A DNA stretch of 64,000 nucleotides, from NCBI GenBank assembly GCA_964016885.1, contig CAXHJY010000838.1:54599-118598 (forward strand). Direction: 5' to 3'. Below, piece by piece: positions 21,782 to 62,178 of this stretch (within the stretch, counting starts at the first letter, position 1; each line of letters starts with the position of its first letter). Position numbers and translations under genes: made by a program. The notes below the pieces were generated by a model, which ran no database searches, was not told the DNA's origin, and was given only the letters and a program-made list of their open reading frames with translations. Source of the DNA: Eledone cirrhosa (Eukaryota).

Positions 21782-22400
21782 GAAATTATTGTGTACAGTG
21801 CTCAGGGGCACTACAACTGATCAAAGGTGCATGTATAGTACATAGAATAATGTACAAATGTCAGGAAAGTGAACAGTGTATATAACGGGTTAATATTTCA
21901 AACTTTAGAAGAAGAACTGAATTATGTCACAAAGCAACAGACATTGCTAGCCAAAAATAGTAATACATCTTCCATCTTACATTTGAGAATCACCTAGACA
22001 AAACACGCTTCCATTAACAATTCAGAGAAATAATGAAGTCTTCAGAAATGTCTAGTTTGTTTAAAATATAGAAGAATATAGATATAAATACACGTTTTTA
22101 CTCTATGACACGTAAACCAATGTAATATGAGGGTTGACAAGGAAAATATTTTATCAAAAAACTTGACAAATCACAGTATCAAAGATAATTTGGATAGGGC
22201 ACATGTAATATTAGCAAATAGAACTGCTGCTATTTAATATAATGGAGAGCCACAGAGATAGATTAACATATAAAAACATAGTACATTGAATAATTTACAA
22301 ATTATTCTACATGTATATACACATGTATATATACATATATATGCATATACATATATATACATATATATGCATATATATATATATGTATGTATATGTATAT

Positions 22401-22748
22401 GGAGGCACATGGCTTAGTGGTTAGAGCATTGGCCTTGCAATCGAAAGGTTGTGAGTTCAATTCTCAGACCAGGTGATGTGTTGTTTCCTTGAGCAAGAGA
22501 CTTTATTTCACATTGCTCCAGTTTACTCAGCTGTAGAAATGAGATGATAGGGAATGGGGTCTCTATCATTCCACTGCAAAGTGGTCGTGGAGGTGCCACG
22601 GCAAAAAAGCACCCAGCACTCACTGTAAATGAGGTTGGTGTTAGGAAGGGCATCCAGCTGTAGAAATCAAGCCAGAATCAGTTCCCGTCCCACCCTTGCA
22701 AGCAGGGAAAAGCGGATGTAAAATGAAATGAAATGAAATGAAATGAAT
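22401..22748 (+). mobile_element. composite SINE (S2): tRNA head + CORE-like domain + RTE-derived 3' tail, inserted in (TA)n
   Basis: A-box TGGCTTAGTGG, B-box GAGTTCAATTC, CCTTGAGCAAGAGACTTTATTTCAC. The 3' ~110 nt are near-identical to the 3' UTR of the RTE at 23562-24476. (AAATG)n tail. Confidence 0.9.
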
Positions 22749-23170
22749 GCATATATATATATATATATATATATATACATGCATATATATATATATATAC
22801 ATGCGTATATATATATATATATACATGCATATATATATATACATATACATGCATATATATATACATATACATGCATATATATATATACATATACATGCAT
22901 ATATATATATACATATACATGCATATATATATATACATATACATGCATATATATATATACATATACATGCATATATATATATACATATACATGCATATAT
23001 ATATATACATATACATGCATATATATATATACATATACATGCATATATATATATACATATACATGCATATATATATATATATACATATACATGCATATAT
23101 ATATATACATATACATGCATATATATATATATATACATATACATGCATATATATATATACATATACATGC

Positions 23171-26626: not shown

Positions 26627-27111
26627 CATATATATATATATGTATACATACATACGTACATATATATATATACATATATATATATACATACATACGTACA
26701 TATATATATATATACATATATATATATACATACATACGTACATATATATATATATACATACATACATATGTACATATATATATATATACATATATATACA
26801 TACATATATATATATATACATACATATACATACATATATATATATATACATACATATATATATATATACATACATACATATATATATATATACATACATA
26901 CGTACATATATATATATATACATATATATACATATATATATACATATATATATAGATATATATATATATATACATATATATATACATATATACATATATA
27001 TATACATATACATATATATATGCATATATATATACATATATATATACATATATATATACATATATATATACATATATATACACATATATATACATATATA
27101 TATATATACAC

Positions 27112-27458
<347 letters not shown>

Positions 27459-27553
27459 CACATATATATAAATATATATATACATATATACATATATATA
27501 CATATATATATATATACATATATATACATATATATATATATACATATATATAC

Positions 27554-27669
<116 letters not shown>

Positions 27670-27670
27670 C

Positions 27671-27884
<214 letters not shown>

Positions 27885-27896
27885 GCATATATATAC

Positions 27897-27932
<36 letters not shown>

Positions 27933-27944
27933 GCATATATATAC

Positions 27945-27975
<31 letters not shown>

Positions 27976-27986
27976 CATATATATAC

Positions 27987-28057
<71 letters not shown>

Positions 28058-28070
28058 TGCATATATATAC

Positions 28071-28135
<65 letters not shown>

Positions 28136-28152
28136 CATTTATATATATATAC

Positions 28153-28239
<87 letters not shown>

Positions 28240-28256
28240 CATTTATATATATATAC

Positions 28257-28291
<35 letters not shown>

Positions 28292-28303
28292 CATATATAT
28301 ATA

Positions 28304-28436
28304 CGTTATTCCGGGTTGAATCGGAGGTAACCACAGTAAGTAAGGTACTCAATACATAGCAGAGTATAACAGTTTTAATATAGATGAGATTCTACAGGAC
28401 TAGAACTGTTTCATTCATTAGAAATCATCAGGAATC

Positions 28437-28437
<1 letters not shown>
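28304..28437 (-). mobile_element. 134-bp hammerhead-bearing island (Penelope/retrozyme-like 3' end) inside the TA array
   Basis: The only non-TA sequence between 26627 and 32051. It consists of an HHR plus ~80 nt of 3' tail. Confidence 0.75.
28387..28437 (-). ncRNA. complete type-I hammerhead ribozyme
   Basis: Minus strand: AGATTC-CTGATGA-T-TTC-TAAT-GAA-T-GAA-ACAG-TTCTAGTC-CTGT-A-GAATCT. Intact core, 6-bp stem I, 3-bp stem II, 4-bp stem III, GUA cleavage triplet (H17 at 28393). Confidence 0.85.
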
Positions 28438-28467
<30 letters not shown>

Positions 28468-28493
28468 CATATATTATATATATACATATATAC

Positions 28494-28716
<223 letters not shown>

Positions 28717-28747
28717 CATATATATACATACATATATATATATATAC

Positions 28748-28832
<85 letters not shown>

Positions 28833-28833
28833 C

Positions 28834-28908
<75 letters not shown>

Positions 28909-28921
28909 AATATATATATAT

Positions 28922-28972
<51 letters not shown>

Positions 28973-28985
28973 AATATATATATAT

Positions 28986-29051
<66 letters not shown>

Positions 29052-29067
29052 TTATATATACATATAC

Positions 29068-29158
<91 letters not shown>

Positions 29159-29235
29159 CATATATATATAGATATATATATACATATATATATATACATA
29201 TATATATATACATATATATATATACATATATATAC

Positions 29236-29322
<87 letters not shown>

Positions 29323-29413
29323 CATATATATATAGATATATATATACATATATATATAGATATATATATACATATATATATAGATATATATATACATATA
29401 TATATATACATAC

Positions 29414-29450
<37 letters not shown>

Positions 29451-29461
29451 CATATATATAC

Positions 29462-29495
<34 letters not shown>

Positions 29496-29605
29496 ATATA
29501 TACATATATATACATACATATATATACATATATATACATACATATATATACATATATATACATACATATACATACATATATATATACATACATATACATA
29601 TATAA

Positions 29606-29638
<33 letters not shown>

Positions 29639-29749
29639 CATATATATACATATTATATACATATATATACAATATATATATATACATATATATACATATA
29701 TATACATATATATACATATATATACATATATATACATATATATATATAC

Positions 29750-29782
<33 letters not shown>

Positions 29783-29831
29783 CATATATATATACATATA
29801 TATATACATATATATATATACATATATATAC

Positions 29832-29865
<34 letters not shown>

Positions 29866-29893
29866 ATATATATATATATACATATATATATAC

Positions 29894-29965
<72 letters not shown>

Positions 29966-29967
29966 AC

Positions 29968-30112
<145 letters not shown>

Positions 30113-30119
30113 TATATAC

Positions 30120-30152
<33 letters not shown>

Positions 30153-30153
30153 C

Positions 30154-30204
<51 letters not shown>

Positions 30205-30339
30205 CATATACATATACATATATATATACATATATATACACACATATATATATATATACATATATATACATATATATACATATATATATATATACACATA
30301 TATATATATACATATATATACACACATATATATATATAT

Positions 30340-30378
<39 letters not shown>

Positions 30379-30600
30379 TATATATATATACACATATATA
30401 TATATATATACACATATATATATATATATACACATATATATATATATATATACACATATATATATATATATATACACATATATATACATATACATATATA
30501 CACATATATACACATATATATACATATACACATATATATATACACATATATATACATATACACTTATATATATATATACACATATATATATATATACACA

Positions 30601-30713
<113 letters not shown>

Positions 30714-30769
30714 ATATATACACACATACATATATACATATATATATACATATATATATATACATATAC

Positions 30770-30803
<34 letters not shown>

Positions 30804-30809
30804 CTATAC

Positions 30810-30849
<40 letters not shown>

Positions 30850-30897
30850 CTATACATATATATATATATATACATATATACATATATATATCTATAC

Positions 30898-30938
<41 letters not shown>

Positions 30939-30951
30939 CATATATATATAC

Positions 30952-30984
<33 letters not shown>

Positions 30985-31235
30985 CATATATATATACATA
31001 TATATATATACATATATATATACATATATATATATATATACATATATATATACATATATATATACATATATACATATATATACATATATACATATATATA
31101 TACATATATATATACATATACATATACATATATATATACATATACATATACATATATATATACATATACATATATATATACATATATATATACATATACA
31201 TATATATATACATATATATATACATATATATATAC

Positions 31236-31280
<45 letters not shown>

Positions 31281-31395
31281 TATATACATATATATATACA
31301 TATATATATACATATATATATACATATATATATACATATATATATACATATATATATACATATATATATATATATAGATATATATATATATATAC

Positions 31396-31446
<51 letters not shown>

Positions 31447-31560
31447 CATATATATATACATATATATATACATATATATATATACATATATATATACATA
31501 TATATATAGATATATATATATATATACATATATATACATATATATATATATATATACATG

Positions 31561-31591
<31 letters not shown>

Positions 31592-31801
31592 ATACATATA
31601 CATATATATATACATATATATATACATATATATATACATATATATATACATATATATGCATATATATATACATATATATATACATATATATATACATATA
31701 TATATACATATATATATACATATATATACATATATATATACATATATATATATATATACATATATATATACATATATATATACATATATATATATACATA
31801 C

Positions 31802-31873
<72 letters not shown>

Positions 31874-31875
31874 AC

Positions 31876-31907
<32 letters not shown>

Positions 31908-31919
31908 ATATACATATAC

Positions 31920-31953
<34 letters not shown>

Positions 31954-31967
31954 ATATATACATATAC

Positions 31968-32008
<41 letters not shown>

Positions 32009-32051
32009 CATATATATACATATATATATACATATATATATACATATATAT

Positions 32052-32642
32052 ACACCTTGAATACTGTTGTCCACTGTGGTCTCCCCACACGAAACAAAGT
32101 ATCATGAAACTTGAAGCTCCTCAAAGGGCAATCACGAAAAAGATAGATGGCATGTCAGACCTTGACTACTGGGGTCGATTGGAAAACCTGAAACTTTACT
32201 CACTCCAACGTCGCCGTGAGCGTTATATTATCTGCATGATGTGGAAAATGTTCCATCATCACTGCCCAAATGATGTTGGCATCGCCTTCAAGATACACCC
32301 AAGGCTTGGGCCCCGTGCTATCCGTCCCATTCAAAAATCTAAATCGCAACTCATAACAACAATACGGCACAATTATTTCACCTCAATCGGCCCTGCTCTC
32401 TTCAACATCACACCAGGACACGTCAAAACAGAAACTGACCACACAAAATTCAAGAAGTCTTTGGACAAATTCCTCCAAGTAATCCCGGACAAACCACCCA
32501 CACCCGGATATGTCTCCGCAAACAGTAATTCTCTTCTCGAATGGGCCATGGTGCCCAAATCCTGAATTGAAAGACTTCGCCAGGTGGTGCTATTAAGTTA
32601 GACATGGCCTGGGCCAATACTGGCCAAAACATTTCAAAGTTA
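32052..32642 (+). mobile_element. 5'-truncated CR1-like LINE 3' end (copy 1)
   Basis: [12 protein letters not shown]...[12 protein letters not shown]...[12 protein letters not shown], near-identical to 59788-60384. Tail CAAAGTTA. Confidence 0.95.
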
Positions 32643-32849
32643 TACATATATATATACATATATATACATATATATATACATATATATATACATATATATA
32701 TACATATATATATACATATATATATACATATATATATACATATATATATACATATATATATACATATATATACATATATATACATATATATATACATATA
32801 TATATACATATATATATACATATATATATATATACATATATATATATAC

Positions 32850-32880
<31 letters not shown>

Positions 32881-32948
32881 CATATATATATATACACATA
32901 TATATATATACATATATATATATATACATATATATACATATACATATA

Positions 32949-32984
<36 letters not shown>

Positions 32985-33249
32985 CATATATATATACATA
33001 TATATATACATATATATATATATACATATATATATATACATATATATATATACATATATATATATATACATATATATATATACATATATATATATATACA
33101 TATATATATATACATATATATATATATACATATATATATATACATATATATATATATACATATATATATATACATATATATATATACATATATATATATA
33201 TACATATATATATATACACATATATATATATACATATATATATATACAC

Positions 33250-33354
<105 letters not shown>

Positions 33355-33365
33355 CATATATATAC

Positions 33366-33416
<51 letters not shown>

Positions 33417-33427
33417 CATATATATAC

Positions 33428-33492
<65 letters not shown>

Positions 33493-33599
33493 CATATATA
33501 TACATATATATATATATACATATATATATATACACATATATATATATACACATATATATATATATATATATACATATATATATACATATATATATATAC

Positions 33600-33648
<49 letters not shown>

Positions 33649-33649
33649 C

Positions 33650-33830
<181 letters not shown>

Positions 33831-33851
33831 CATATATATATACATATATAC

Positions 33852-33882
<31 letters not shown>

Positions 33883-33945
33883 CATATATATATACATATA
33901 TACATATATATACATATATATATACATATATACATATATATATAC

Positions 33946-34028
<83 letters not shown>

Positions 34029-34047
34029 CATATATACATATATATAC

Positions 34048-34100
<53 letters not shown>

Positions 34101-34103
34101 CAC

Positions 34104-34166
<63 letters not shown>

Positions 34167-34203
34167 CATACATATATATATATACATACATATATATATA
34201 TAC

Positions 34204-34250
<47 letters not shown>

Positions 34251-34251
34251 C

Positions 34252-34298
<47 letters not shown>

Positions 34299-34299
34299 C

Positions 34300-34352
<53 letters not shown>

Positions 34353-34466
34353 CATATATATATACATATATATATACATATATATATATACATATATATA
34401 TACATATATATATAGATATATATATATATATACATATATATACATATATATATATATATATACATG

Positions 34467-34497
<31 letters not shown>

Positions 34498-34703
34498 ATA
34501 CATATACATATATATATACATATATATATACATATATATATACATATATATATACATATATATGCATATATATATACATATATATATACATATATATATA
34601 CATATATATATACATATATATATACATATATATACATATATATATACATATATATATATACATATATATATACATATATATATACATATATATATATACA
34701 TAC

Positions 34704-34775
<72 letters not shown>

Positions 34776-34777
34776 AC

Positions 34778-34809
<32 letters not shown>

Positions 34810-34821
34810 ATATACATATAC

Positions 34822-34855
<34 letters not shown>

Positions 34856-34869
34856 ATATATACATATAC

Positions 34870-34910
<41 letters not shown>

Positions 34911-34953
34911 CATATATATACATATATATATACATATATATATACATATATAT

Positions 34954-35544
34954 ACACCTTGAATACTGTTGTCCACTGTGGTCTCCCCACACGAAACAAA
35001 GTATCATGAAACTTGAAGCTCCTCAAAGGGCAATCACGAAAAAGATAGATGGCATGTCAGACCTTGACTACTGGGGTCGATTGGAAAACCTGAAACTTTA
35101 CTCACTCCAACGTCGCCGTGAGCGTTATATTATCTGCATGATGTGGAAAATGTTCCATCATCACTGCCCAAATGATGTTGGCATCGCCTTCAAGATACAC
35201 CCAAGGCTTGGGCCCCGTGCTATCCGTCCCATTCAAAAATCTAAATCGCAACTCATAACAACAATACGGCACAATTATTTCACCTCAATCGGCCCTGCTC
35301 TCTTCAACATCACACCAGGACACGTCAAAACAGAAACTGACCACACAAAATTCAAGAAGTCTTTGGACAAATTCCTCCAAGTAATCCCGGACAAACCACC
35401 CACACCCGGATATGTCTCCGCAAACAGTAATTCTCTTCTCGAATGGGCCATGGTGCCCAAATCCTGAATTGAAAGACTTCGCCAGGTGGTGCTATTAAGT
35501 TAGACATGGCCTGGGCCAATACTGGCCAAAACATTTCAAAGTTA
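34954..35544 (+). mobile_element. 5'-truncated CR1-like LINE 3' end (copy 2, duplicate of copy 1)
   Basis: Same truncation point and apparently the same sequence as 32052-32642; offset 2902 bp. Confidence 0.95.
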
Positions 35545-35763
35545 TACATATATATATACATATATATACATATATATATACATATATATATACATATATA
35601 TATACATATATATATACATATATATATACATATATATATACATATATATACATATATATACATATATATATACATATATATATACATATATATATACATA
35701 TATATATACATATATATATACATATATATATACATATATATATATATACATATATATATATAC

Positions 35764-35794
<31 letters not shown>

Positions 35795-35862
35795 CATATA
35801 TATATATACACATATATATATATACATATATATATATATACATATATATACATATACATATA

Positions 35863-35898
<36 letters not shown>

Positions 35899-36163
35899 CA
35901 TATATATATACATATATATATACATATATATATATATACATATATATATATACATATATATATATACATATATATATATATACATATATATATATACATA
36001 TATATATATATACATATATATATATACATATATATATATATACATATATATATATACATATATATATATATACATATATATATATACATATATATATATA
36101 CATATATATATATATACATATATATATATACACATATATATATATACATATATATATATACAC

Positions 36164-36254
<91 letters not shown>

Positions 36255-36265
36255 CATATATATAC

Positions 36266-36316
<51 letters not shown>

Positions 36317-36327
36317 CATATATATAC

Positions 36328-36376
<49 letters not shown>

Positions 36377-36483
36377 CATATATATACATATATATATATA
36401 TACATATATATATATACACATATATATATATACACATATATATATATATATATATACATATATATATACATATATATATATAC

Positions 36484-36532
<49 letters not shown>

Positions 36533-36533
36533 C

Positions 36534-36714
<181 letters not shown>

Positions 36715-36735
36715 CATATATATATACATATATAC

Positions 36736-36766
<31 letters not shown>

Positions 36767-36829
36767 CATATATATATACATATATACATATATATACATA
36801 TATATATACATATATACATATATATATAC

Positions 36830-36914
<85 letters not shown>

Positions 36915-36933
36915 CATATATACATATATATAC

Positions 36934-37046
<113 letters not shown>

Positions 37047-37083
37047 CATACATATATATATATACATACATATATATATATAC

Positions 37084-37130
<47 letters not shown>

Positions 37131-37139
37131 CATATATAC

Positions 37140-37188
<49 letters not shown>

Positions 37189-37209
37189 CATATATATATA
37201 CATATATAC

Positions 37210-37282
<73 letters not shown>

Positions 37283-37283
37283 C

Positions 37284-37330
<47 letters not shown>

Positions 37331-37331
37331 C

Positions 37332-37384
<53 letters not shown>

Positions 37385-37413
37385 CATATATATATACATA
37401 TATATATATATAC

Positions 37414-37510
<97 letters not shown>

Positions 37511-37569
37511 CATATGCATATATATATATACATATATATATATGCATATATATATATATACATATATAC

Positions 37570-37652
<83 letters not shown>

Positions 37653-37747
37653 CATATACACATATATATATATACATATATACATATATATATATATACA
37701 TATATATACATATATATATATATATACATATATATACATATATATAC

Positions 37748-37778
<31 letters not shown>

Positions 37779-38117
37779 CATATATATATATACACATATA
37801 TATATATACATATACATATATACATATATACATATACATATATATATATATACATACATATATATATATACATATATACATATACATATATATATATATA
37901 CATACATATATATATACATATATATATACATATATATACATATACATATATATATATACATATATATATATACATATATATATATACATATATATATATA
38001 CATATATATACATATACATACATATATATACATATATATATATATACATATACATATATATACATATATATATATATACATATACATATATATACATATA
38101 CATATATATATATATAA

Positions 38118-38152
<35 letters not shown>

Positions 38153-38260
38153 CATATATATATACATATATATATATATACATATATATATACATATATA
38201 TATACATATATATATACATATATATATATACATATATATATACATATATATATATACATA

Positions 38261-38300
<40 letters not shown>

Positions 38301-38302
38301 CA

Positions 38303-38682
38303 TAGTAAAACCTACTACAGTCAGTAGGCATCTAACAAAATACACCCCCGTCCCACGACCCCCACCCCATCCACACCACCCCCTTCTATGTAAAGTTATG
38401 TTGGTGCCACACCATCCAGGCCGAAACAAATGAGATCGTGTAGGTGTCACGACAAAAAAAAACACACAGTCCATGATGTAATGTGGCCGTGTAGGCAACA
38501 CGGTAAACACCTCCCAGACCCACACTGTAAATGTGGTTGGTGTTAGGAAGGGCATCCAACTGTAGAAAACCTGCCAGACAGTCCTATGTGAGCAAGACAA
38601 TCACTCTTGCCTCAAGTGGGAAAACCCCCGTCTAAACCCATGCAAGCATGGAACACGGACGTTAAACGTTGATGATGATGAT
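38303..38682 (+). mobile_element. RTE family B 3' UTR (5'-truncated) with (GAT)n tail
   Basis: Near-identical to 61682-62069; TA arrays on both sides. Confidence 0.9.
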
Positions 38683-39349
38683 ATATATATATATACATAC
38701 ATATACATATATATATACATACATATATATATATACATACATATATATATATATATACATACATATATATATATATATACATACATATATATATATACAT
38801 ATATATATATACATATATACATATATACATATACATATATATATACATATATATATATACATATATATATACATATATATATATACATATATATATACAT
38901 ATATATATATACATATATACATATATATATACATATATATATACATATATATATATACATATATACATATATATATACATATATATATACATATATATAT
39001 ATACATATATATATACATATATATATATACATATATATATACATATATATATATACATATACATATATACATATATATATACATATATACATATACATAT
39101 ATACATATATATACATATATATATATACATATATATATACATATATATATACATATATATATACATATATACATATATATATACATATATATATACATAT
39201 ATATATACATATATATACATATACATATATATATACATATATATATACATATATATATACATATATATATACATATATATATACATATATATATATACAT
39301 ATATATATATACATACATATATACATATATATACATATATATATACATA

Positions 39350-39385
<36 letters not shown>

Positions 39386-39429
39386 CATATATATACATAA
39401 ATACATATATATACATAAATATATACATA

Positions 39430-39465
<36 letters not shown>

Positions 39466-39657
39466 CATATATATACATAAATATATACATATATATATAT
39501 ACATACATATACATATATACATATATATATATACATATATATATATACATACATATACATATATACATATATATATATACATATATATACATACATATAT
39601 ATATATACATACATATACATATATACATATATATATATACATACATATATATACATA

Positions 39658-39691
<34 letters not shown>

Positions 39692-39998
39692 CATATATAC
39701 ATATACATACATATATATACATACATATACATATATACATATATATACATACATATACATATATACATATACATATACATATATACATATATATATATAC
39801 ATACACATATATACATATATATATATACATACATATACATATATACATATATATATATACATACATATATATATACATATATATATATACATACATATAT
39901 ATATACATATATATATATACATACATATATATATACATACATATATATATACATATATATATATATACACATATATATACATATATATATATATACAC

Positions 39999-40071
<73 letters not shown>

Positions 40072-40526
40072 CATATATATACATATATATATATACATAC
40101 ATATACATATATATATATACATACATATACATATATATATATACATACATATATATATATACATACATATATATATATACATACATATACATATATATAT
40201 ATACATATATATATATACATATATACATATATACATATACACATATACATATATATATATACACATATATATATATACATATATACATATACACATATAT
40301 ATATACATATATACATATACACATATATATATATACACATATATATATATACATATATACATATACACATATATATATATACATATATACATATACACAT
40401 ATATACATATACACATATATACATATACACATATATACATATACACATATATATATATACATATATATATATACATATATATATATACATATATATATAT
40501 ACATATATATACTTTCATACACTTAA

Positions 40527-43472: not shown

Positions 43473-43782
43473 GGAGGCACATGGCTTAGTGGTTAGAGCA
43501 TTGGCCTTGCAATCGAAAGGTTGTGAGTTCAATTCTCAGACTGGGTGATGTGTTGTTTCCTTGAGCAAGACAATTTCATATTGCTCCAGTTTACTCAGCT
43601 GTAGAAATGCGGTGATAGGGACTGGGGTCCATATCATACCACTGCAAAGTGGTCGTGGAGGTGCCACGGCAAAAAAGCACCCAGCACTCACTGTAAATGA
43701 GGTTGGTGTTAGGAAAGGCATCCAGCTGTAGAAATCAAGCAGGGAAAAAGCAGACGTAAAATGAAATGATGATGATGATGAT
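43473..43782 (+). mobile_element. composite SINE S2, second copy
   Basis: Near-identical to 22401-22748; flanked by ATATATATAAT on both sides (probable TSD). Confidence 0.9.
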
Positions 43783-58873: not shown

Positions 58874-60301
58874 GAAAACCTTCTATCCCAGTCTGTTGTC
58901 CCAGTTTTCAAAAAGGGAAACAAATCCCTTGCCGTGAATTACCGTCCAATCTCACTCACCTCTCATATCATTAAGGTATTTGAGCGAGTGGTGAGATCGC
59001 GAATGACCCACTTCCTTGAGAGTAACAATATGCTGAACTCCAACCAGCATGGATTCCGTAATGGAAGGGATTGCCTGACGCAACTACTGCATCACTTTGA
59101 TGACATTTTGAGAGCCTTGGGAGAGGGTTCCAACACTGATGTTATCTACCTTGATTTCAGCAAGGCCTTTGACAGGGTTGATCATAACATTCTACTGAGA
59201 AAGCTGTCCAATATTGGTGTCACTGGAAAGCTGCTGCAGTGGATCAAGAGCTTCCTGTCAAACAGAACCCAACATGTTGTAGTTGAGGGAGTCAAATCAA
59301 GCCCAGCCAAAGTCAGTAGTGGAGTCCCACAAGGCACTGTGTTGGGCCCACTTCTCTTCATCATCTATATTAATGACATCACTGACATCATCAAACACAG
59401 CAACATTAAAATTTTCGCTGATGATTCCAAGCTCCAAAAGGTCATCAATGGCGTGGATGACCGGATAAGCCTTCAGTCAGACCTACTGGCTGTTACCCAA
59501 TGGGCAGAAAAGAACAACATGTTACTGAACGAAGACAAATTCGAACTGATCCACTTTGGAAAAGAGGATGCTCTGAAACTCCCGTACTTCCTTCCCTCCG
59601 GGGAAACTCTCGTGGCATCTAACAACATCAGAGACTTGGGAGTAACCGTGGACAGCAACATAAGCTGGACCACGCATATAAGCAGCAAAGTTGACATGGC
59701 CCGCAGAATGTGTTCCTGGATCCTCAGAACCTTCCAGTCGAGAGATTCCCGCACCATTATCCTTCTCTTCTCTACTTTCGCCCGACCACACCTTGAATAC
59801 TGTTGTCCACTGTGGTCTCCCCACACGAAACAAAGTATCATGAAACTTGAAGCTCCTCAAAGGGCAATCACGAAAAAGATGGATGGCATGTCAGACCTTG
59901 ACTACTGGGGTCGATTGGAAAACCTGAAACTTTACTCACTCCAACGTCGCCGTGAGCGTTATATTATCTGCATGATGTGGAAAATGTTCCATCATCACTG
60001 CCCAAATGATGTTGGCATCGCCTTCAAGATACACCCAAGGCTTGGGCCCCGTGCTATCCGTCCCATTCAAAAATCTAAATCGCAACTCATAACAACAATA
60101 CGGCACAATTATTTCACCTCAATCGGCCCTGCTCTCTTCAACATCACACCAGGACACGTCAAAACAGAAACTGACCACACAAAATTCAAGAAGTCTTTGG
60201 ACAAATTCCTCCAAGTAATCCCGGACAAACCACCCACACCCGGATATGTCTCCGCAAACAGTAATTCTCTTCTCGAATGGGCCATGGTGCCCAAATCCTG
60301 A
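58874..60301 (+). CDS. LINE ORF2 fragment: complete reverse transcriptase domain and C-terminus (endonuclease lost by truncation)
   Basis: [61 protein letters not shown], with no stops or frameshifts. Confidence 0.93.
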
Positions 60302-60384
60302 ATTGAAAGACTTCGCCAGGTGGTGCTATTAAGTTAGACATGGCCTGGGCCAATACTGGCCAAAACATTTCAAAGTTAAAGTTA
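58874..60384 (+). mobile_element. 5'-truncated young CR1-like LINE (copy 3) with (AAAGTT)n tail
   Basis: Uninterrupted RT frame, short 3' UTR, tail CAAAGTTAAAGTTA running into (TA)n. Confidence 0.96.
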
Positions 60385-61151: not shown

Positions 61152-61315
<164 letters not shown>

Positions 61316-61322
61316 GTATATA

Positions 61323-62069
61323 TTAAGCAGACTAGAGAGGAACGAAGCTTGCATGCTCCGCTGGATGTGTAACAGTAATATACGTGAACGGCAAAGCATA
61401 AACGAACTAAGGAAAAAATTAGAGATAAGAGGGATCAGATGTTGTTTACTCGAGAGAAGGCTACGTTGGTATGGACACGTGATGCGCATGAAAGTCGATA
61501 GCTGTATAACAAAGTGCAGGGCAATAAAGATAGACGGTAGTCACGGAATAGGCAGACCTAGAAAAACCTGGACGAGCTGATAAACTCCGACATCACACAC
61601 TTACACCTCTCCAAGACAATGTCACTGGACCGAGACCTTTGGCGGTACTCAGTAACAGAGAAGACCCGCCTTACCTAAATATATAGTAAAACCTACTCCA
61701 GCCAGTAGGCATCTCTAACAAAATACACCCCGTCCCACCACCACCACCCGATCCACACCACCCCGTTCTATGTAAAGTTATGTTGGTGCCGCGCCATCGA
61801 GGCCGAAACAAATGAGATCGTGTAGGTGTCACGACAAAAAAACACACAGTCCACGCTGTAATGTGGCCGTGTAGGCAACACGGTAAAAACCTCCCAGACC
61901 CACACTGTAAATGTGGTTGGTGTTAGGAAGGGCATCCAACTGTAGAAAACCTGCCAGACAGTCCTATGCGAGCAAGACAATCACTCTTGCCTCAAGTGGA
62001 CTACCCCGTCCAAACCCATGCAAGCGTGGAACACGGACGTTAAACGTTGATGATGATGATGATGATGAT
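61323..62069 (+). mobile_element. 5'-truncated RTE LINE (family B) with 3' UTR and (GAT)n tail
   Basis: [14 protein letters not shown]...[11 protein letters not shown]...GRPRKTW, then a 1-nt frameshift to [25 protein letters not shown]. Paralogous to family A. Confidence 0.93.
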
Positions 62070-62178
62070 ATATATATATATGTATATATATATATATGTG
62101 TATATATATATATGTATATATATGTATATATATATGTATATATATGTATATATATATATATGTATGTATATATATATG

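Follow-up and report, generated by a model that had tools for sequence, protein, structure and literature searches.

The window, a stretch of 64,000 nucleotides from the genome of Eledone cirrhosa, carries a 13.9-kb (TA)n/(TACA) array (26628-40512), which was delimited by Tandem Repeats Finder and a map of the islands it contains and is the target of the insertion. One of these islands, on the minus strand at 28304-28437, is numbered below from +1 (28437) to +134 (28304).

The hammerhead motif and the tail of the island

A complete type I hammerhead pattern occupies 28437-28387. The 5' strand of stem I (+1 to +6; 28432-28437) is followed by the core sequence CUGAUGA (28425-28431), by stem II with its 4-nt loop (28413-28424), by the core sequence GAAA together with stem III (28394-28412) and by the predicted cleavage site, 3' of the A at 28393, with the 3' strand of stem I (28387-28393). 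Stem I comprises 6 bp, stem II 3 bp with a U.U mismatch at the base, and stem III 4 bp including the A15.1-U16.1 pair; the 8-nt loop of stem III contains the palindrome CUAG (28403-28400), and the cleavage triplet is GUA. This architecture reads on the minus strand as the earlier note had described it, and so do the 83-nt tail 3' of the motif and the TA repeats on both sides of the island. The same note had called the island essentially one intact hammerhead; the motif is there, but it covers only 51 of 134 nt and this wording is therefore too strong.

Within the tail, TA-like bases at +56 to +73 (28365-28382) constitute a putative start site for reverse transcription (site A), placed by the ends of inverted pieces and of several copies that bear an open reading frame (ORF). 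A small hairpin of the form ACUC..GAGU (+73 to +91; 28347-28365), recognised by its motif, lies just behind site A, and a 3' terminal hairpin (28305-28331) with a predicted fold precedes a second putative start site, B, at +134. In 27 matches from older-subfamily loci, the pair +113/+128 of the terminal hairpin is C-G in 14, T-A in 7 and discordant in 6. The search for a second RCTC..GAGY hairpin behind +134 returned none within +1 to +260 of one ORF-bearing copy (L061), the sole one being located at +73. On the opposite strand, positions 28334-28346 (+) hold two overlapping occurrences of GTAAGT, a perfect splice-donor-like sequence, and the stretch containing them seems to be conserved among older subfamilies.

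The presence of the type I hammerhead motif was confirmed. A descriptor scan of both strands identified it as the only one of its kind in the window, and the type I core CUGANGA, GAAA and NUH with stems I to III is present. A chance origin was considered and rejected: none of 200,000 mononucleotide shuffles of the island yielded stems of at least 6, 3 and 4 bp, while a relaxed version of the motif appeared in 15 of 200,000. The G10.1-C11.1 pair at the base of stem II is absent, the U.U being found here and in approximately 99% of the instances analysed; a precedent for U.U in this position of helix II is the active axolotl motif HHR_Amex2 (PMC7229834). The covariance-model check proposed in the earlier note came out negative, as the Rfam hammerhead models gave no match to the island at the gathering score or at E <= 10.

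The computed folding energies favour a dimer. The active monomer fold reaches -5.3 kcal/mol compared to -5.6 kcal/mol for the minimum-energy structure, with an ensemble probability of 0.03, and single-strand folding of 54 nt was no more stable than that of shuffled sequences (z = +0.65), as computed with a program that does not model the catalytic core. Self-cleavage of transcripts reading through the window copy is predicted to be weak for the monomer. The stem III region is calculated at -12.8 kcal/mol as a self-duplex versus -1.4 kcal/mol as a hairpin, from which a dimer held by intermolecular pairing is predicted, in agreement with the suggestion that the stem III palindrome suits dimers.

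Conservation was assessed in 189 hammerhead instances from fetched loci, 60 of these loci having been picked via a pattern covering +1 to +17. The core is 98-100% conserved, partly via this selection of loci. Stems II and III are invariant and are consequently uninformative on covariation, and loop II varies more than any other part of the motif (38-83% conservation at +19 to +21 versus at least 96% in the stem). In stem I, where +4 to +7 and +46 to +48 were fixed by the search pattern, the pair +3/+49 is A-U in 135 instances, C-G in 43 and of other composition in 11, whereas the pair +1/+51 was found as G-C in only one of 51 copies with native upstream sequence. Copies with a conserved core and a covarying stem I, as anticipated in the earlier note, thus exist; the covariation at +3/+49, which distinguishes subfamilies, probably reflects one or two events, and the pattern represents selection on the hammerhead fold, albeit with few independent events.

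The parent element and the anatomy of its insertions

A search of the genome (G000; 3.0 Gb, 1,796 contigs) with the 28-mer at the 3' end of the island gave 8,270 exact matches, and the reversed control gave none. Two older stem I variants account for 1,740 and 1,704 matches of a 17-mer, some of these matches being artefacts of junctions or representing the two arms of a single insertion. A copy of this pseudo-LTR that belongs to an older subfamily and has 87% identity is located about 9 kb before the window (L227:532-660; G000:C865).

The island is 99.3% identical to the pseudo-LTR directly upstream of an ORF in two loci (L061 and L062), and 93 exact island-ORF junctions were counted in the genome, which bears out the Penelope-like origin proposed earlier: the island is the pseudo-LTR of an element coding for reverse transcriptase plus an endonuclease of the GIY-YIG type. 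Immediately behind the island, L061 has an open frame of 758 codons with its first ATG at codon 46, then a TA/CA-rich 3' UTR of about 3.6 kb and, again, +1 to +67. Because of this long 3' UTR, the units are large; L061 measures 6,033 bp and L230 about 4.8 kb. The ORF is intact in L061, L230 and L232, interrupted by one stop in L229 and frameshifted in L062. Its product combines a reverse transcriptase with a C-terminal endonuclease of the GIY-YIG type, the motifs YRDDG and IVYKC..YIG being present, although the Pfam GIY-YIG match is weak (E = 0.019, below the cut-off). Further motifs are RWR at 83, DKT at 161, CNCLNKEAC (CxCx5C) at 611, CDLC at 711 and CMH at 739, and a canonical CCHH is absent from the protein as judged by eye. 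A distance of 130 nt separates the hammerhead from the first ATG downstream; for a 5' UTR intron ending at the AG of +143/144, no clear donor was found.

The Hydra clade of Penelope-like elements (PLEs) is defined by a C-terminal endonuclease and the motifs RW(K/R), DKT, CxCx5C, CxxC and CxH, and its members are generally shorter than 3 kb, a tendency more than a strict criterion (Craig et al., 2021; PMC8557442). Placed by its protein motifs and insertion anatomy, the parent element would belong to this clade, and the island is almost certainly a stub of a Hydra pseudo-LTR.

The anatomy of the insertions was analysed in the first 90 of the 8,270 3'-end matches, all of them on contig C1 and unbiased as to the 5' end. 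TA repeats are found within 20 nt of the 3' end in 85 of these 90 copies, in line with the TA targeting claimed in the earlier note; three copies continue into the ORF, and 57 are accompanied by an adjacent inverted piece. The outer end of the inverted pieces is located at +60, +67 or +73 in 47 of 57 cases, all of which are TA-like positions, while the direct pieces end at +134 by selection of the sample. The 3' ends of ORF-bearing copies were found at +67 (L061 and L230) and +60 (L232), and several such copies carry an inverted piece that ends at +134.

The two arms of an insertion tend to agree in length, being both long in seven pairs, both short in 49 and mixed in one (7/0/1/49; Fisher p = 3e-8). 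In 19 of the 57 pairs, it is the inverted arm that extends further in the 5' direction, and in four the direct one; moreover, the arms do not overlap at all in four pairs, which folding back of one cDNA cannot yield. Fold-back of a single cDNA was therefore rejected as a general source of the inversions, both on these four pairs and on the 19 inverted pieces that extend further 5'. Instead, the concordance of the arms and their lack of overlap fit two cDNAs primed at +60 to +73 and at +134 on the same RNA, although the correlation of arm lengths could partly come from the joining step.

5' boundaries, putative promoter and the proposed origin of the stubs

The earlier note had named random 5' boundaries as the outcome that would reduce the island to an ordinary truncated element. 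The boundaries are not random: 34 of the 68 direct pieces starting between -100 and +106 begin at -2 to +10 (p = 4e-24 versus a uniform distribution), five at +41 to +52 (p = 0.36) and one at -100 to -15, the remaining 22 of the 90 copies extending further upstream than this interval. The inner ends of inverted pieces fall on +1 to +4 in 28 of 57 cases, with a mode at +2, and on -10 to -1 in three. Genome-wide, exact junctions of TA with +1 number 61, the window copy included, against 8,270 3' ends; the cut site has 10 such junctions and a control TAG at +36 has eight. The literature searched, a body of work that took in little of the subscription papers and of Repbase, contained no description of a start site coinciding with the hammerhead and marked by a 5' pile-up.

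In the numbering of the island, a type I hammerhead cuts after +45. Such a cut would remove the core. The ribozyme is therefore unable to generate a boundary at +1, and copies retaining the core derive from uncleaved RNA. A 5' boundary made by the ribozyme was rejected on this geometry and on the lack of enrichment at +45/46 (5 of 68 starts; 10 versus 8 junctions). The same figures (5/68 with p = 0.36 and 10 against 8 junctions, i.e., background) weigh against a rolling-circle origin, in which copies derive from circularised unit RNAs cleaved by the hammerhead and the island is a random truncation. This model has been proposed for PLEs (PMC4209133) and agrees with the seamless tandem pseudo-LTR/ORF copies seen in 14 of 42 junctions, but it offers no reason for the one-sided pile-up at +1 to +4, and we consider it highly improbable.

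Long copies provide a different explanation for the boundary. Their sequence TATAAATA begins 30 nt before +1, and among 71 long copies selected with an unrelated C-rich motif, 63 have TATAWA between -35 and -22, a count in which overlapping loci are retained. Older subfamilies keep a TATA box at -29 to -33 despite a different spacer. The sequence CC-AGATT at +1 fits the initiator consensus YYANWYY. The sharp common start of the stubs is thus likely to mark the start of the element RNA, judging from sequence, and not the predicted ribozyme cut; position +1, at the 5' strand of stem I, would be both the transcription start and the 5' hot spot of the copies, with the TATA-like box 29-33 nt upstream. 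Two observations weigh against this reading: other hammerhead families of this genome show no uniform TATA at -30 from stem I, and the Penelope element of D. virilis has an internal promoter without TATA (PMC2377424). In other published PLEs, a rotifer Penelope pseudo-LTR contains a putative TATA box and initiator (PMC3846280), and the start site lies inside the pseudo-LTR in Chlamys and Penelope (PMC8557442; PMC2377424). The solo copy in the window has lost its native promoter and is probably inert.

The array itself could supply TATATA in place of a TATA box, since (TA)n lies at -30 of solo copies. The earlier note had interpreted the island as a minimal ribozyme retroelement, i.e., a self-standing non-autonomous, retrozyme-like unit transcribed from the TA array and mobilised in trans, and the 61 exact TA/+1 junctions, the well-defined ends and some older-subfamily insertions with both arms ending near +60 to +67 (L181/L182 and L189) agree with it. 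However, this interpretation was not supported: the 134 bp are the pseudo-LTR of an autonomous element, and short copies have no dominant haplotype of their own. Scored at seven variable positions, the window copy has the haplotype most often found in ORF-linked copies (10 of 28). The haplotypes that prevail among short copies, that of the window included, recur in long copies or in those linked to an ORF, and a dominant haplotype confined to short copies was not found among 36 of them. As far as this sample shows, the window copy thus descends directly from autonomous masters and does not represent a lineage of its own. In addition, 57 of the 90 copies are inverted pairs and not solo units, and in 30 unbiased loci the tail was not repeated exactly on the same strand over a distance of 1.5 kb, whereas the genome does contain a true tandem hammerhead family with units of 422 bp. 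Finally, a PLE tested in vitro requires RNA downstream of the start site (PMC11167929), which solo copies lack for +134. Taken together, a self-standing minimal element seems improbable.

The reading we favour, with moderate confidence, is that the island is the pseudo-LTR end of an autonomous Hydra PLE inserted into the TA array, formed as run-off cDNA of an uncleaved 5' leader. RNA polymerase II would initiate at +1/+2, with the TATA box of a tandem pseudo-LTR situated about 30 nt upstream, so that the hammerhead forms nucleotides 1-51 of the RNA. The endonuclease would nick (TA)n, and reverse transcriptase would prime within the leader: on one strand at +134, on the other usually at +60 to +73; both cDNAs would run off the 5' end of the RNA and then be joined head to head via microhomology. 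The window copy would represent a rarer outcome, in which the +134 cDNA alone was kept and joined to TA. Two classes of template are envisaged, a common one that starts at +1/+2 (the leader) and a rarer long one (from the 3' pseudo-LTR). Ribozyme cleavage would fall after +45, most favourably in a dimer formed via the CUAG palindrome, and would not be needed for stub formation. Run-off at the start site, taken as a mechanism on its own, is held only a shade less firmly on the strength of these sequence patterns.

A simple full-length mRNA starting at +1 would lead one to expect a pile-up of ORF-linked copies at +1, yet none is seen. In 42 ORF-linked junctions from 40 loci, taken from the 93 matches, three start at -4 to +10 and 14 run beyond -387. 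Likewise, an extra cap-derived base after the inverted ends was sought in 21 cases, which were mixed and without a clear signature. A further hammerhead PLE of this genome (family E; 11,515 matches) gives a divided picture: 20 of 30 rows are long, and of the 10 short ends, with palindromic insertions counted twice, five lie near the promoter-like motif AAAATGGCG about 60 nt upstream of the core and five at or after stem I. This split indicates that a hammerhead itself may also create a hot spot. Family E (L194, L063, L233-L262) has a CCHH-type endonuclease and a pseudo-LTR with the motifs GCGCATGCGC, CCGGATGT and AAAATGGCG, which we take to be NRF1-like, ETS-like and YY1-like, respectively; they suggest a TATA-less, housekeeping-type promoter.

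Owing to the missing ORF-linked pile-up, the split in family E and the lack of an evident cap base, a structural hot spot in the same element stays a live rival, albeit an unlikely one. In this case, reverse transcriptase copying long RNAs from the 3' pseudo-LTR would stall or switch template once the hammerhead has been copied, for instance owing to self-complementarity of the cDNA made from both strands of stem I. The coincidence of the hot spot with stem I fits such a stall, as do the four short ends of family E at -7 to +1 around its own stem I, the frequent extension of ORF-linked copies far upstream and one insertion (L037) that was joined through stem I complementarity. A stem I match was, however, used in only one of 57 junctions, and independent stalls would not produce arms that are both long or both short (p = 3e-8). 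Furthermore, the C-rich RNA upstream of +1 has no predicted stable structure, and the TATA box at about -30 persists across subfamilies.

Returning to run-off at the start site, a more far-reaching version can be put forward tentatively. The hammerhead would form the first 51 nt of a capped Pol II transcript, and the stubs would be complete, strong-stop-like paired cDNAs. Cleavage that depends on dimer formation would take off the cap and serve as an off switch sensitive to concentration, with uncleaved RNA alone being copied, and the genome would record the start site at base resolution.

Relation to known elements and neighbouring repeats

Hammerheads in PLE pseudo-LTRs, TA targeting and inverted stubs have already been described, while the origin of the inverted and tandem ends of PLEs and the role of the hammerhead are stated as open questions (PMC8557442). 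The value of the present census could lie in the properties of the family, which is young, retains intact ORFs, has two fixed points of initiation and shows, behind a TATA box, a 5' pile-up sharp to the base. The proposed mechanism makes exact predictions, namely that capped transcripts begin at +1/+2, that the cDNAs measure about 134 and 60-73 nt and that cleavage is dispensable, for which an in vitro system such as that of PMC11167929 would be suitable.

With the Hydra clade, which includes Hydra-1_Obim, the element shares RW(K/R), DKT, the CxCx5C linker, CxxC and CxH and the absence of CCHH, as well as a pseudo-LTR hammerhead, (TA)n targets, an inverted 5'-truncated piece and a one-sided tail (PMC8557442). 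Its units of about 4.8-6.0 kb exceed the less than 3 kb of the clade, and its tail of about 67 nt the 30-40 nt reported there (PMC8557442). Hydra-1_Obim itself differs by another hammerhead and by a homologous but clearly different protein, compared by eye, and the sequence of the island motif was not found in the parts of the supplement covered (PMC8557442). No octopus or cephalopod hammerhead PLEs beyond that paper were encountered in the literature searched, in which subscription papers and Repbase are sparsely represented.

Minimal hammerheads of metazoan PLEs occur as dispersed single motifs from truncated elements and as head-to-head pairs (Cervera and De la Pena, 2014; PMC4209133). Both features are shared by the present family, together with type I topology, a palindromic loop III and predicted activity as dimers; in contrast to those motifs, stem II here has 3 bp with U.U in place of G10.1-C11.1, stem I a full 6 bp and stem III 4 bp (PMC4209133).

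In vitro, the Poseidon element PAc from Anolis uses two internal start sites of reverse transcription that bound the tail, and both strands are extended; uncleaved RNA is the main substrate, hammerhead mutants left insertion unaffected and cleavage needed protein (Frangieh et al., 2024; PMC11167929). Two internal starts, extension of both strands, AT-rich targets and an uncleaved template thus have counterparts here. However, the PAc hammerhead overlaps the start of the ORF, whereas the one described here precedes the first ATG at the apparent start of the RNA; PAc primes without homology, whereas both 3' end points here have TA-like bases; and a 5' run-off hot spot is not described for PAc in the parts of the report covered (PMC11167929).

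Metazoan non-LTR retrozymes, tandem repeats of 150-450 bp that give rise to circular RNA, likewise have a type I hammerhead, a short non-coding unit and an origin from PLE pseudo-LTRs, but the window family is dispersed, inverted-paired and tied directly to its own ORF (PMC7229834; bioRxiv 10.64898/2026.07.22.740005). Head-to-tail tandem units of the hammerhead were absent from 30 unbiased loci of this family; two direct copies separated by flanking sequence were seen in two of 30 best-match loci (L013 and L027). A retrozyme-like family (C) does occur in the genome, with 11,090 matches and tandem units of 422-424 bp (L276-L285; G000:C1:9968763-9972244), each containing a minimal hammerhead and an internal TA run, in direct arrays with an inverted part; being a tandem repeat, it is of no use as a promoter test. 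Other hammerhead families (L009, L020, L041, L087 and L163), in which stem I has 8 bp and stem II is very long, are also situated beside TA repeats.

The window carries further repeats. Two identical 589-bp 3' ends of a LINE-like reverse transcriptase element are located 2.9 kb apart in the same TA array, at 32054-32642 and 34956-35544 (+), and have identical 200-bp upstream flanks, and a longer copy at 59790-60378 (+) is 99.8% identical. These copies go back to a recent duplication at this locus, to insertion into TA targets more than once or to a repeat in the assembly. Moreover, tRNA-headed SINE-like repeats were identified in the window at 22394-22756 and 43480-43543, with an Rfam tRNA match at 43480, and their 3' part resembles the islands at 38293-38684 and 61313-62071.
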